A DNA stretch of 5,121 nt. Origin: a virus. Lineage: Duplodnaviria; Heunggongvirae; Uroviricota; Caudoviricetes. A program made the translations under genes and the position numbers. The notes under the pieces were generated by a model, which searched no databases, was not told where the DNA came from, and saw only the letters and a program-made list of their open reading frames with translations. The stretch's first letter is position 1, and every line of letters starts with the position of its first letter. Where the stretch lies: IMG/VR virus record IMGVR_UViG_2698536505_000007, positions 1-5,121 of that record; one strand, written 5' to 3'. This document shows, in pieces, positions 1-5,121 of the stretch.

Positions 1-2225
1 GGAGCACCACTGGAACCACCTGAAACAAATGTCATCGAATGGGTATGTGCACCGGCTGAAGCAGCCGTACCGCTAACACTATGGGTATGCGCCCCGGTGT
101 TATTCGTGGATTTAGTGCCGTAATCAAACGACGATGTGTTTTTCGTCCCCAAATCCGTACTGGATGCGCTGGCGCTGTGGGTGTGCGATTTAATGCCGTC
201 CTGTTCCTGAGATAATACGGCTCGACCACTGGCAGGTTTGCCCTTAATCGTCCAGCCACGCATATCAGGGATCACGCCTGACGGATAAGCGGCTGCAAGT
301 TTTGGGTAGGCAGATTTGTCAAAAGTCTGCCCCTGCATCAGGGCATAACCAGACGGAACGGTATCTGATGGCCACGGGATTGGTGCACCGACTGGATAAA
401 ACTCTGCAGGAGGATGAGCCGAGGTGTAAAGCTGCGCCCAACCACTTTCAAAACCATAACCGTCTCTTGAAGAACGGTAGAACAGACCACCATTTCTGTA
501 ATGCGCCTTCATCTGCAAGGTCCGGCAACTTCCGACTCCGGTATAGAAGTTAACCAGAATATAGCTGTCGCCAGAGCGGGTGACATTATAAGCGCCTGAT
601 TCGGCATTCCATGGAACGCCCCCATCCGCATCGGCATACGCATCCGTTGCTCTTCTGGCAAAAGCAGCCACATGCGCGGCGGTTAAAGTGATATCAGTAG
701 AACCATCAAATGGAACACCGGATATTTTTCTTGCAGTCTGAAGTTTTGTAGCAGTTGCAGCATTACCAGTGGTGTTCTGATTACCCGTAGTGTTTACACC
801 TGGAAGGTTAATATTTGCAGAACCGTCGAAAACAACTCCACCGATAGATCTTGCCGTCTGCAATTTCGTGGCTGTACTTGCATTACCATTCAATGAACCA
901 GTTAATCCACCTGTAACAGACAACGGACCTGAAACTGTTCCTCCGGTTGTTGGCAGTGCTCCAATATCTAACGGCGTCGGTTTCTGATGTGTGCTATACA
1001 TCGTATAAACAACACCATCGGTAACGCTGGAAGGCTTACTCGCTGAATATGTTGGCGATGTATAAATAGAAACTGTCGCATTTGCAGTACAATCCCAATG
1101 GATATTTACACGAGTCGCATAATTGCCAATCTCAACGTAAATATCATATGTATCGCCGGATGTGTTGATCCAGGCGAAATTCGTTAATCCGACGGCTGTA
1201 CGCTTCCACAAAGCCCCGGTAATTCCTTTGGGGTTTCCATTGCCTGCTCGTAGAACCAGTTCTGAAATGCCTGCCTGATGTGGGGAACCGACGTTGTAAC
1301 CAGCGCCACCAATCAATGCGATGTAAACGATGGAACTCGCTTGTGGCATGGTAACCGTAGCCAGTTTGAACCACCCAGCCCCGCCAGAGAAAGACATCGT
1401 TACTGAATTTAAAGTACCAATATCTTTCGGCGTTAATGTTATATCCGCAGTCAGTGCTTTTCCGTTAACTTTTCGGTTAGATGGCACCCTGCTATTCGCA
1501 TTGTCATTGGCTGCTTTAACTGCTTTTGGCGTTGCGGCCAGCGATTCACTGGTGCTATCAACAGCACTGCTAAGTTTCACAACACCTTTAGTTGTAAGGC
1601 TTGCGTCTTCCATCGCAACTGCACCGGCAATCTCTTCAGCACGATCAGCAGCAGCTTCCGCACGGGTCGCAGCGGATTCAGCAGCAGTTTTGCTCTGAGA
1701 TGCTGCCGTCGCACTGCCTGCCGCCTCTGTTGCTTTCGTGGATGCCGTCGTGGCGCTGCCCTTCGCTGCTGACGCCTGTCTGGTCGCCTCATCTTTTGAA
1801 GCAGACGCAGATGATGCCGATGACGCTGCCGAACTGGCGGACGATGCGGCTGCCGTGTTCTGTGCCACTGCGGACGCGTTACGCGCCACCTCTTCCACCA
1901 TCAGTTCAAAACGGCGCAGTGCCTCTGGCCGGACATCATCCTCCGTCATTGCACCGAGGAAATCATTCAGTGTGCCCGGCTTTGAGTCCTCATATACGGT
2001 GATAATCCCGGCGTGTGACGGCGGGAATCCCTCCACCAACAGACTGACGCTGTACTGACCATACTCGACGTCCATTGTGTAACGCCCGGCTTCATCCGGG
2101 TTTTCTGAGGCCACTGTGTTCACCACCACCGTGGTGCTGTTGCGCCTGGCCTTTAGCTGAATGGTGCAGTTTTGTATCGGCTTACCTGCGCCATCTTTCA
2201 GTACACCTGAAATCCGTACTGCCAT
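1..2225 (-). CDS. stf: Side tail fibre protein Stf (lambda stf / orf-401 + orf-314 homolog); N-terminal 741 codons, 3' end beyond the window edge
   Basis: Hand translation of the minus strand from ATG at 2225..2223 is open with no stop for 741 codons down to position 3 ([118 protein letters not shown]...). The first ~105 residues closely match my recollection of the lambda Stf N-terminus, and the distal part (...[65 protein letters not shown]...GAHTHS...) matches the lambda orf-314 portion. A G-rich Shine-Dalgarno (GGGGGG, plus-strand 2229..2234) lies just upstream of the ATG. Absent from the ORF track only because it lacks a stop inside the window. Confidence 0.9.
690..887 (-). repeat. Two tandem ~40-codon phage tail-fibre repeat units inside stf
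   Basis: Translated units [30 protein letters not shown] and [30 protein letters not shown] lie about 120 bp apart in the same frame and share the motif [15 protein letters not shown]. The underlying DNA is diverged, so this is an old duplication. Confidence 0.6.
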
Positions 2226-2234
2226 ATTCCCCCC

Positions 2235-2263
2235 ACAAAAAAGCCCGCCTGAACCGGCGGGCT
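2235..2263 (-). terminator. Rho-independent terminator downstream of lom
   Basis: Minus strand reads AGCCCGCC-GGTTCA-GGCGGGCT (a 7-8 bp GC stem with a 6-nt loop, plus-strand 2242..2263) followed immediately by TTTTTT (plus-strand A-run 2237..2242). It lies 27 bp after the lom stop and about 10 bp before the stf start codon. Confidence 0.55.
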
Positions 2264-2289
2264 GTCATAACACTGTGTTACCTGGCTAA

Positions 2290-2889
2290 TCAGAATTTAT
2301 AACCGACACCCACGATGAAACTGTTGGTACGCCAGTCACCGCTGCCGGAGCCTTCATAAGCGACGTCAACGGCCACGGATTCGGTCGGGTTAAACTGCAC
2401 GCCAGCTCCCCACGCCAGAGACGTGTTGCTGTGGCGACCGTCATCACTTCCGGTCAGCACATCGTGCGTTTTCCCCTTGTTGTCAGTTACGCGGATATAA
2501 TCCCCGGAGAAAGTCGACACACGGCTGTAAGCCATACCCGCCATCGCATACGCGCTGAACCATTCATTCACGCGCACAGACGGCCCCGCCATCACGCTGA
2601 ACCAGCGATTACGCACGGAATCCTCATGCCAGCGGGTATCGCTGTAATGCGTTTTTTGCTCATCTTCAGCGTTGGCATAACTGAATGACGTAATCAGCCC
2701 CAGCGTGTCCGTAAACTCATAACGGTATTTCACGTTAATCCCGTTCAGATTTTCGCTGCCGGGAGCGTTCGTACGGGCATGAAGATACCCTGCGCTCAGT
2801 GTGGCCTGCTGCTCAGACGCCCATGCAGGCGCACCGGATACGGCCAGACAGATGGCTGCGGACAAAATGGCTGCACAAACTTTACGCAT
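2290..2889 (-). CDS. lom: Lom outer membrane protein (Ail/Lom/PagC family beta-barrel), 199 aa
   Basis: Complete ORF in the track. The protein begins MRKVCAAILSAAICLAVSGAPAWA (signal peptide with an AWA-S cleavage site) and ends GVGYKF (C-terminal Phe typical of outer membrane barrels). Near identical over most of its length to my recollection of phage lambda Lom. Shine-Dalgarno GAGAGG lies 5 nt upstream of the ATG. Confidence 0.95.
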   Translation of the reverse strand: MRKVCAAILSAAICLAVSGAPAWASEQQATLSAGYLHARTNAPGSENLNGINVKYRYEFTDTLGLITSFSYANAEDEQKTHYSDTRWHEDSVRNRWFSVMAGPSVRVNEWFSAYAMAGMAYSRVSTFSGDYIRVTDNKGKTHDVLTGSDDGRHSNTSLAWGAGVQFNPTESVAVDVAYEGSGSGDWRTNSFIVGVGYKF

Positions 2890-2894
2890 AATTA

Positions 2895-2900
2895 CCTCTC
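2895..2900 (-). promoter_or_regulatory. Shine-Dalgarno sequence for lom
   Basis: Minus strand reads GAGAGG-TAATT-ATG; the spacing and sequence are canonical. Confidence 0.6.
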
Positions 2901-2910
2901 GCTTTTCTGC

Positions 2911-2937
2911 AATAAAAAAGGCGCCATTTCTGGCGCC
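2911..2937 (-). terminator. Rho-independent terminator immediately after J (tJ-like)
   Basis: Minus strand reads GGCGCC-AGAAAT-GGCGCC (6 bp GC stem, plus-strand 2920..2937) followed by TTTTTTATT (2919..2911). It starts 20 bp after the J stop codon (2957..2959) and ends about 20 bp before the lom ATG. Confidence 0.55.
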
Positions 2938-2956
2938 CGTATATGGGTTATAAAAT

Positions 2957-5019
2957 TCAGCTGATACTGATGCCTGCGGTGGCTTTCTTCATCACCACAA
3001 CCAGCAAATCGCTGATACTTGCTGTGGGATACCAGTCATTTACCAGCCATGCTGACACCGAAAACTCCAGCGTCATGTGGCCGTGACCAGCTGGCATATC
3101 AATAACACCACTGTAAATCAGCGTATTATCCAGCGCGGTACGGTTATAAATTTCAGCACCATTTTTCTTCACTATCAGGCGGCATGAGGAGTAAATATCA
3201 GTATGCTCTCTCTCATGTTTAGCACCGCTGAATGCCACCGCCGGAATAACAATCTGCCGGTCAAACGGCTGATCGTCATAAATCCTGACGGTAATGGTCC
3301 CTGATGGCCACCGCTCCGGTGCCCGGGAGTCCCGCGGGAAAGCCTTACCCACTGTTTTGACAATATCGCCTTCAATCTGGTTGGCTGACAGTTTCCCTTT
3401 AATCTGACAGTTCTCATTTATCGTAACGTTGTTGAGCGTCCCGGCGTTCGCATTCACACTGCCACTGATATCTGCATTTTTAGCGGTCAGCTTTCCGTCC
3501 GGTGTCATGGAAAATGCAGGAGGATTACCGCCGCTGGTAATGGTCGGAGCCGTCAGGCGTTTCAGGAACACGTCGTTCATGAATATCTGATCGCCCTGAC
3601 CAACAAACATCGGCTTTGTGTTGCCATTCGCAGGATTAATCATCGCAATCCGATCAGCAGCCAGAAGCACCTGACTCTGCATACCTGCTGGCGTATTCTC
3701 AATACCGGCTCCGATACCCGCAATATAAAGGCGTCCGTCCTTCATCTGCTGCAGTTTCACGGCCCACATGCTGTTCAGGTTATTATTTGTATCAACCTGA
3801 ACTTTCTGTATCTGCTGGATTGCCGCGCTCTGATTTTCCAGTTTTTTATTGACGGTCTGCGTGATTTCATTGCTGACATTCGTAATGGACGTCCTGATTT
3901 CAGCCAGGTCAGGCGCAAGCTGACCGTTATCAATCTGCGTCCACAGCTCCTGGGCCAGATGTGTTTTCCCGATTTCTCCTTTGAAAAAATCCAGGTAACC
4001 TTCCGCATCATCGCTCGCCCGACCGACAGCCTCCACGAATGCCGATTTGCCGACTGTGTTCACACTGCGAACGTAAAAATAATAATCATGGCCCGGCTTA
4101 ATATTGATACTGGCGGCTATCCAGTACAGCGCCGTACCAAGATAGCGGGCTGTGGTTTCAACCTGCCTGATATCCGCAATCCGCGTTTCCGAGAACCAGA
4201 ACTCAAACTGTACCGTCGGATCATAAACCGCAAGATGCGGCGTGGCAGTTATCTGAAAATAGCCCGGCGTCAGCTCAATCCGCGACGGCGCTGCCGGGGC
4301 GGCAATCCGGAACGATACCGACGTCGGATCGCCCTGCTGTCCCCACGCATTTACCGCCCGGACCGTCAGCATGTAACGCCCCAGCGCCAGCTGCCTGAAG
4401 CGGTATGTGGTTTCCGTCGTCCGGGCCGTGCTGACCAGCCGCTCACTGCCGTCATCCGCTGTTACGGTCAGACGGAGCAGGAAGCTCACACCCTTCACCA
4501 CCTTCGGCGTGTCCCAGCGCGCCAGCACCTGATATTCCCCGCTGTCTGCGGTGACTTCGGCGGTCAGGTGCTGCACCGCTGGCGGCGTGACACCATTCAC
4601 CGTGCCGCTCTGGTCACCGTCAAAGTGCGCCCCGTTATCCACGATGGCTTCTTTTTCCGGTACATGCTGCACGGCGGTGATGGCATACGTGCCGTCGTCG
4701 TTCTCACGGATACTCACGCAGCGGAACAGGCGCTGGCGCAGCGTCGGCAGCTTCAGCCCCCACACGCTGTATTCAGCAACACCGTCAGGAACACGGCTCA
4801 CTTTCACCTTCACGCCGTCGGTGACGGACTGAACCTCCACGCTGACCGGATTGCCACTTCCGTCAACCAGGCTTATCAGCGTGGTACCGGAGGATGGCAG
4901 CGTGATTTCACGGTCGAGCGTCAGCGTCCGGGTCTGGCTGTTTACCGCCAGCACGCGCCCGCCGATGCTGATACCCGCATAGTCATCATCACAGATTTCA
5001 ATGACATCGCCCGGCACAT
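2957..5019 (-). pseudogene. J: Host specificity protein J (tail tip / central tail fibre), C-terminal ~687 codons; 5' side interrupted by IS3
   Basis: The track ORF 2957..5032 (691 aa) matches the C-terminal ~60 percent of lambda J over long stretches ([17 protein letters not shown]..., ...[11 protein letters not shown]..., ...[24 protein letters not shown]...[20 protein letters not shown]...). The upstream 13 nt of that ORF (5020..5032), including its GTG start, lie inside the IS3 terminal inverted repeat, and an in-frame stop sits at 5069..5071 within IS3. Genuine J sequence therefore begins at 5019 with no native start codon in the window. Lambda J is about 1130 aa, so roughly 450 N-terminal codons are missing or displaced beyond the IS element. 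Confidence 0.8.
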
Positions 5020-5058
5020 TGATCCTACCCACGTAATATGGACACAGGCCTAAGCGAG
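5020..5058. repeat. IS3 terminal inverted repeat (IRR, ~39 bp, imperfect)
   Basis: TGATCCTACCCACGTAATATGGACACAGGCCTAAGCGAG read inward from the element tip, matching the recalled IS3 right inverted repeat. The left copy would lie about 1.2 kb beyond the window. Confidence 0.75.
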
Positions 5059-5121
5059 GTTCTTGTTTTCAAATTGTTCCGGACTGAGGCCGCCACACCA
5101 ACTGTGCCGCCGCCACCGATT
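5050..5121 (-). CDS. insF: IS3 transposase OrfB (InsF), last 23 codons plus stop; partial, N-terminus beyond the window
   Basis: Minus-strand translation from the window edge gives [23 protein letters not shown] followed by TAG (plus-strand 5050..5052). This is the recalled C-terminus of the IS3 OrfB transposase, and the stop lies inside the terminal inverted repeat, as is typical for IS3. Confidence 0.8.

Follow-up and report, generated by a model that had tools for sequence, protein, structure and literature searches.

The window, a stretch of 5,121 bp analysed as a whole, corresponds base for base to the reverse complement of a complete draft contig (CYAI01000085.1; assembly GCA_001277655.1) and carries, on its minus strand, the right-hand end of an IS3 element joined to a 5'-truncated J gene, followed by lom and stf. 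At each end of the window the assembly stops in a repeat, within the repetitive part of stf at one and within IS3 at the other, where the contig breaks (5020..5121) because IS3 is repeated in the genome. The features, all on the minus strand, are listed below with the evidence on which each was assigned.

1..2225, minus strand: stf (stfR-like side tail fibre), the 5' 741 codons, cut by the contig end; open, no stops
2290..2889, minus strand: lom (Ail/Lom outer-membrane beta-barrel), intact, 199 aa; Pfam PF06316
2919..2938, minus strand: terminator-like hairpin and T-run directly past the J stop codon; consensus scan only
2957..5019, minus strand: remnant of J (tail tip attachment protein), 5'-truncated; gpJ alignments, Pfam and PGAP
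2957..5017, minus strand: 686-aa ORF reported by gene callers, with start GTG 5017; public gene calls
5017..5019, minus strand: ATG triplet at the start of the J flank, the expected place of any target-site duplication; flank comparison in B19374
5020..5121, minus strand: right-hand 102 nt of IS3; 3' end of K-12 IS3A and end of the B19374 IS3
5020..5058, minus strand: right terminal inverted repeat of IS3, ~39 bp, ...CTCGCTTAGGCCTGTGTCCATATTACGTGGGTAGGATCA; comparison of the left and right repeats (IRL/IRR) in the B19374 copy and direct reading
5050..5121, minus strand: transposase (InsF/orfB) C-terminus, the last 23 codons and TAG stop; translation identical to InsF1
5071..5101, minus strand: putative outward-facing promoter boxes near the IS3 right end, TTGGTG (5101..5096) and CAATTT (5076..5071); PMC12095673, PMC8860574 and direct reading

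The IS3 end, the J remnant and the right arm

The sequence read from 5121 to 5020 (...AATCGGTGGCGGCGGCACAGTTGGTGTGGCGGCCTCAGTCCGGAACAATTTGAAAACAAGAACCTCGCTTAGGCCTGTGTCCATATTACGTGGGTAGGATCA) is identical at 102 of 102 positions to the last 102 nt of the element annotated 'insertion sequence:IS3A' in MG1655 (pairwise blastn, E = 2e-51), an alignment to reference IS3 that an earlier note on this DNA had named beforehand as a test of its reading, and it is also identical to the end of the 1,258-bp IS3 of strain B19374. The last letters of the element, at 5020, are ...GGGTAGGATCA. Translation of 5121..5053 yields 23 aa identical to the C-terminus of K-12 InsF1, followed by the TAG stop at 5052..5050, confirming that an IS3 terminal repeat and transposase C-terminus lie on the same strand as J. 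The right inverted repeat (5058..5020) ends ...GGATCA and holds a GTG at 5032 and an AGGA at 5026..5023. Assignment to IS3 also agrees with the ~39-bp terminal inverted repeats ending 5'-TG...CA-3', the left one reading TGATCTTACCC... in B19374, and with near-identity to the 1,258-bp reference, observed over 102/102 nt in the window and 1,254 of 1,255 aligned bases in the B19374 copy. An orfA/orfB overlap with programmed -1 frameshift and a DDE (rve) transposase were likewise found, as judged on the B19374 copy and a fragment on contig L014, the window itself carrying the last 23 codons only; the L014 fragment, 87 aa from the end of the transposase, matches rve_2/rve_3.

From 5019 downward (ATGTGCCGGGCGATGTC...) the sequence aligns with complete gpJ genes from numerous E. 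coli prophages at 99-100% identity, 99.95-100% across 2957..5019, and the gpJ alignments all end exactly at 5019, in agreement with the previous reading of a J frame recognisable from this position and truncated on its 5' side. Intact J has 1,159 codons and is interrupted here within codon 473, up to which it reads ...GGGCTTCGCCATG; residues 474-1159, ~60% of J, remain. The 691-aa ORF spanning 2957..5032 contains four J-specific Pfam domains, Ig_J, Ig_J_second, Phage_Tail_Tip and Ig_GpJ_C, with E-values of 1e-30 to 1e-42. FNIII-A_GpJ and most of Phage-tail_3 are missing, whereas an intact relative has all J domains; since the full domain set is incomplete, the sequence is a J remnant and not a J gene. 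Consistent with this, the PGAP/RefSeq entry for the B19374 copy is a pseudogene, 'incomplete; missing N-terminus'. The position is that of a lambda-type J, with J'-lom-stf-tfaR-pinR order downstream, as J is followed in lambda by lom, stf and then tfa, and the upstream partners of J, the homologues of lambda tail genes I, K, L and M, are deleted. Lacking the N-terminal domains, the J fragment cannot serve as a tail-tip hub and tails cannot be made, which upholds the proposal that the prophage is defective.

Downstream, lom is intact, as had been claimed, the Ail_Lom match (PF06316) covering positions 1-199 of 199 with E = 6e-125. The gene is of equal length in B19374 and in strain 2018-06-4CC and is annotated WP_001233121.1. 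The presence of stf downstream was also borne out, the frame being open across all 741 codons in the window, and on longer contigs it is an 822-aa gene followed by tfa and pinR, an order also observed in B19374. At 822 aa it is 253 codons shorter than in the relative, an in-frame difference in the repeat region. The locus is the right arm of a Rac-type prophage, J'-lom-stf-tfaR-pinR-ynaE/ydfK-ynaM-uspF-ompN, situated between trkG/ynaK and pinR-ynaE-uspF-ompN. Contig L008 extends this order as J'-lom-stf-tfa-pin-YnaE-YnaM-Usp-porin-nifJ, with the same context in B19374.

Recurrence of the joint and the far side of IS3

The same IS3/J joint is present in six independent NCBI draft assemblies, one metagenome contig and one closed genome, the draft and metagenome contigs holding 77-296 nt of IS3 each (296 nt in the metagenome contig, not enough to reach beyond the element). 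As the joint recurs across assemblies, it is real and comes from a repeatedly sampled lineage. Only one of 5,426 closed E. coli genomes carries it, that of strain B19374 (NZ_CP142915.1), and the junction pattern was not found in GTDB species-representative genomes or in IMG/VR viral contigs. The joint is located close to the extremity of a short draft contig, which could suggest an assembly artefact, in which a chimeric contig end unites IS3 reads and J reads; the identical junction in the six draft assemblies, in the metagenome contig with its 296 nt of IS3 and in the closed chromosome refutes this, and the chance of an artefact is negligible. In RefSeq, the B19374 joint is already described as an IS3 next to a pseudogene, and every component is a known entity.

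In B19374, the sequence corresponding to the 5,121-bp window is identical except for two SNPs and an ISCro1 element (IS66 family), located between lom and J' and flanked by an 8-bp duplication (TTTTCTGC), which the lineage of the window lacks. The B19374 IS3 is complete, with a length of 1,258 bp and 99.92% identity to K-12 IS3A, is annotated 'IS3-like element IS3 family transposase, programmed frameshift', and begins with the left end that the earlier note had predicted (TGATCTTACCCAGC...). Two further expectations of that note were not borne out. The element is flanked by ...CATCAGGT on the left and ATGTGCC... on the right, and no 3- or 4-bp target-site duplication is present around it (GGT vs ATG), the 3-bp duplication anticipated from an insertion being absent; two IS3 copies in strain MB22, handled alike as positive controls, show duplications of GCC and GTTC. 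In addition, the ~450 N-terminal codons of J (actually 472) expected beyond IS3 are not there. The left neighbour is instead a 3'-truncated TAGT/GREB1-related glycosyltransferase-like gene (PF20691), followed by ynaK' and trkG, so that IS3 in B19374 does not separate the two halves of one gene. The TAGT-family frame enters the IS3 left end and encodes 268 aa with the C-terminal letters ...HHQVDLTQQ.

Comparison of B19374 with a relative carrying an intact J, 2018-06-4CC (NZ_AP021893.1), indicated the extent of the change: 18,094 bp are missing and IS3 is in their place. The flanks are 99.95% identical on both sides and in 2018-06-4CC form two colinear same-strand blocks 18,094 bp apart, the segment between them occupying 2533202-2551295 of NZ_AP021893.1. 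The missing block contains the following.

3' part of the TAGT-like gene, plus a small ORF
small and large terminase genes
portal (DUF4055), minor head protein, a DUF6651-domain gene (possibly scaffold) and P22-type capsid
head-tail connectors, tail terminator, tail tube and ydaY
tape measure, together with the counterparts of the lambda tail genes M, L, K and I
J codons 1-472 (codon 473 of 1,159 is the one interrupted)

In the relative itself the prophage contains pseudogenes (Rz/Rz1, ynaK and a frameshifted head-tail gene) as well as IS remnants. Since these pseudogenes occur alongside an intact J, the Rac-type prophage was probably already defective prior to the IS3 event.

A probable IS3-associated deletion and its possible routes

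As IS3 replaces 18,094 bp with respect to the intact relative, the structure in B19374 is an IS3-associated deletion and not a simple insertion. The earlier description of an IS3 insertion cutting J is therefore correct with respect to the presence of IS3 and of a truncated J but not with respect to a simple insertion, in place of which B19374 shows the 18,094-bp deletion. Replacement of a colinear block by a single IS3 with non-matching flanks is characteristic of an IS-associated deletion. Landing of IS3 in an older deletion joint was also considered and rejected, since an insertion into a pre-existing joint would leave a target-site duplication and none is present.

We consider it very probable that in the genome of the window, as in B19374, an IS3-associated ~18.1-kb deletion in a Rac-type cryptic prophage has its right boundary at this joint. 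For the window's genome, whose draft contig breaks inside IS3, the same far side is suggested by the junction, which is base-identical in B19374, and by flanks that are near-identical. The TAGT'::IS3 product of 268 aa is present on 30 public contigs in an exact-sequence cluster look-up, and one accession of this product, CTT24226.1, is only 4,410 numbers away from CTT28636.1, a J' accession, a distance which fits, but does not prove, a single assembly of ~4,800 genes. According to the proposed mechanism, IS3 would first have landed either in J or in the TAGT-like gene, which precedes the terminase genes, and the ~18.1 kb between the J and TAGT-like sites would then have been lost, either through transposase-mediated adjacent deletion from one IS3 end or through homologous recombination between two direct IS3 copies. 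One IS3 would stay, with unrelated sequences on its two sides, and the remnant would be unable to build heads or tails while lom, stf, tfa and pin would be kept.

The window stops 102 nt into IS3, before the far side, and its lineage is not identical to B19374, from which it differs by ISCro1 and two SNPs; some divergence has thus occurred, and the deletion could in principle post-date the split. These observations leave room for a simple insertion in the window's genome, with IS3 inside an otherwise complete J, a 3-bp ATG duplication, J codons 1-473 and all tail and head genes beyond IS3, and loss of the 18 kb in B19374 at a later time. Such an initial insertion at one of the two sites must indeed have existed once. 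However, the only genome with a readable far side, B19374, has the deletion, the complementary junction between the J N-terminal part and the IS3 left end occurs in no closed genome, and the TAGT'::IS3 protein accession is numerically near that of the window's J' protein. The 485-aa fusion of the J N-terminus with IS3 that a simple insertion predicts is also absent, by exact match, from a collection of 15 billion proteins, a negative result that is weak because an exact match is needed and one amino-acid difference would hide the product. Combined, these results make a simple insertion in the window's genome unlikely.

With respect to the route of the deletion, IS-IS recombination is a well-documented source of deletions in E. 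coli, and IS150-mediated rbs deletions reportedly arose in the long-term evolution experiment. If IS3 had inserted twice, independently and in direct orientation, at a GGT target in the TAGT-like gene and at an ATG target in J, excision of the 18 kb by RecA-dependent recombination between the copies would fit the structure observed, one IS3 with left and right flanks from different sites and no duplication. Strain MB22 in addition shows that IS3 lands in this part of Rac-like prophages. This route would nevertheless require two insertions within the same 18 kb, its end structure is indistinguishable from that of adjacent deletion, and among the closed genomes no intermediate, either a simple IS3 insertion at one site or two IS3 copies, was found; we regard it as a realistic possibility, at somewhat less than even chance. 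Transposase-mediated adjacent deletion has been reported for IS3 in plasmid assays (PMC8860574), and we lean slightly towards it over two-copy recombination because one insertion is needed, not two. If the insertion in the TAGT-like gene came first, the expected junction would be the IS3 right end followed by GGT and CACCTGGAAC.

The apparent reading frame at the joint

The 691-aa ORF at 2957..5032 begins at a GTG within the IS3 inverted repeat and is not a native gene, in accordance with its original interpretation as a product of the junction. GTG 5032 is not, as was then stated, the only in-frame start. GTG 5017, which is J codon 474, is in frame too, lies 5 nt past the AGGA of the IS3 terminus (...GGTAGGATCAAT) and is the start used by gene callers. 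The public products starting there (CTT28636.1/CTZ83274.1) are 686 aa in length, correspond to J residues 474-1159 and carry the deposited name 'fibronectin type III'. For the 691-aa ORF no exact match was on record, whether V or M was taken as the first residue, the 686-aa version being the one recorded. The leftover J residues thus form an ORF only because the IS3 terminus supplies the AGGA and in-frame GTG codons. A transposase-J fusion protein was rejected since the transposase and J frames differ by one base, the transposase frame stopping at 5052..5050.

Transcription into this frame would have to be considered in light of what is published for the element. Outward-directed boxes TTGGTG and CAATTT have been named for the IS3 right end (PMC12095673), an outward promoter, P3R, has been described for IS3 (PMC8860574), and the predicted boxes at 5101..5071 face J'-lom-stf. 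In a reporter assay, however, outward transcription was held down by the terminal 50 bp of this end, and expression rose ~1.9-fold on their removal (PMC12095673). A simple consensus scan called no sigma-70-like promoter at the IS3/J joint, and an outward promoter here therefore rests on the literature only. Expression of J' is possible but unsupported.

The most far-reaching reading of the joint is that of a new gene, in which outward promoter and ribosome-binding site both come from the IS3 right end and the 686-aa C-terminal J fragment is expressed and useful, as a receptor decoy, an exclusion factor or a host-range cassette for recombination with other lambdoid phages. The AGGA located 5 nt ahead of the in-frame GTG 5017, the published outward promoter boxes and the intact state of the 686-aa ORF in at least seven contigs are compatible with this proposal. 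Intactness carries little weight, as a single base in 2,118 separates the remnant from intact J and the open frame is therefore uninformative on selection. The repression exerted by the last 50 bp of IS3, the negative promoter scan, the absence of the N-terminal domains needed for joining the tail tip and the RefSeq annotation as a pseudogene also argue against it, and we consider a useful gene at this position very improbable. The same low expectation applies to the IS3 right end acting as a portable expression cassette that makes J residues 474-1159, the central fibre and receptor-binding domain, into a stand-alone functional protein; if this were true, the expressed fragment may mask the receptor against lambdoid superinfection or supply a host-range module.

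Implications and comparison with known systems

The joint has little importance beyond annotation, representing ordinary IS-driven decay of a cryptic prophage. It does provide a clean example of a Rac-family prophage losing its whole morphogenesis module in what would be one IS-bounded event, by a path independent of that in K-12. Two pitfalls are also illustrated. A draft contig that ends inside an IS cannot separate an insertion from a deletion joint, and IS3 termini can create plausible start sites (AGGA-N5-GTG), with the consequence that gene callers turn remnants into apparent genes, as occurred for the 686-aa J fragment named 'fibronectin type III'.

With respect to its components, the IS3 of the window is 100% identical to K-12 IS3A (insE1/insF1; IS3 family, IS3 group) over the right-end 102 nt, and the B19374 copy resembles IS3A in its ~39-bp imperfect inverted repeats, two-ORF transposase and programmed frameshift. 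The B19374 copy differs in the absence of a flanking target-site duplication, because it bounds a deletion. The J remnant keeps the C-terminal architecture of lambda gpJ, Ig_J, Ig_J_second, Phage_Tail_Tip and the Ig_GpJ_C receptor-binding domain, and differs from it in the absence of the N-terminal 473 residues, including FNIII-A_GpJ and most of Phage-tail_3. The proposed event shares with the IS150 rbs deletions and with the deletions observed in IS3 plasmid assays (PMC8860574) a single IS at the joint, the absence of a duplication and the loss of a contiguous neighbouring block, and differs in being a natural chromosomal case of 18 kb.

A further counterpart is the Rac prophage of K-12, in which the reference order is trkG-ynaK-ydaY-ynaA-lomR::IS5-stfR-tfaR-pinR-ynaE-uspF-ompN. 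The right arm of stf, tfaR, pinR, ynaE/ydfK, ynaM, uspF and ompN is common to both, as are trkG and ynaK on the left, and K-12 Rac is also defective, has lost morphogenesis genes and carries an IS. In K-12, however, ynaK is joined to ydaY and a fragment of the tape-measure gene (ynaA) to lomR, J is absent altogether and lomR contains an IS5, whereas here lom is intact, 60% of J is kept and the deletion is bounded by IS3. K-12 Rac and the prophage of the window represent independent decay paths of the same prophage family.

Assembly limits and the start site at the IS3 joint

The window (1..5121) is identical to a complete draft contig, CYAI01000085.1 (assembly GCA_001277655.1), in reverse complement. 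The assembly breaks at repeats, which form both window ends, position 5121 lying in IS3 and position 1 in the stf repeat region. AGGA is located 3 nt from the outer end of the IS3 right terminus (...GGTAGGATCA), so that a Shine-Dalgarno-like site arises wherever the flanking sequence has a start codon within its first bases (about 2-6 nt from the IS3 end). The 686-aa protein call for the J remnant (J') results from this IS3-supplied site together with a start codon, at the IS3/J' joint:

Window 5023..5026, AGGA
Window 5015..5017, start codon

Sequence features around lom and within stf

A consensus scan alone predicted two terminator-like elements:

Window 2938..2919, minus strand, GC-rich hairpin and T-run directly 3' of the J stop
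Window 2263..2242, minus strand, GC-rich hairpin and T-run directly 3' of the lom stop

These predicted hairpins would fit lom as a moron with its own transcription unit. stf encodes 822 aa in the window's lineage and 1,075 aa in 2018-06-4CC, a relative with intact J. The joint of this 759-bp in-frame length difference is an 11-nt overlap (window about 1846..1856), suggesting that sequence within the tail fibre shaft was lost or expanded through repeats.

Insertion sequences in related prophages

In B19374, a closed genome with the J'-IS3 joint, an ISCro1 copy (IS66 family) separates lom from J' and is flanked by a duplicated 8-bp sequence, TTTTCTGC. ISCro1 is absent from the window and the other six contigs with the joint; it therefore inserted later, in B19374 only. 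In B19374 the left end of IS3 truncates a gene of the PF20691 family (TAGT, TET-associated glycosyltransferase), annotated 'GREB1-related protein'. Homologues are found in Salmonella, Klebsiella, Enterobacter, Pantoea and Yersinia (75-85% identity), and in Rac-like prophages the small terminase gene is directly downstream.

B19374 locus (L001) 15505..18202, ISCro1, corresponding window site about 2903..2910
L001 21579..22366, minus strand, TAGT-family gene cut by IS3
2018-06-4CC locus (L004) 21152..22084, minus strand, TAGT-family counterpart
MB22 locus (L003) 16036..17293 and 21110..22367, two IS3 copies

The MB22 copies are independent simple insertions in a Rac-like prophage near ybhC, in the part of the chromosome that contains the lambda attachment site. 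One is inside Rz with a 4-bp duplication (GTTC). The other, with a 3-bp duplication (GCC), has a small ORF on one side and the small terminase gene on the other; the left breakpoint of B19374 is only about 280 bp away.

Mixed gene content at the Rac locus

The Rac-locus prophage of B19374 and 2018-06-4CC carries an ISEsa1 remnant and a mixed gene stretch:

L001 24942..37358, B19374
L004 24601..33338, 2018-06-4CC

Rac-type genes (trkG, ynaK, pinR, tfaR) occur here together with hokD, relBE, ydfV, flxA and ydfW, suggesting, from gene content, a mosaic or rearrangement of Rac with Qin, the prophage to which the latter genes belong in K-12.
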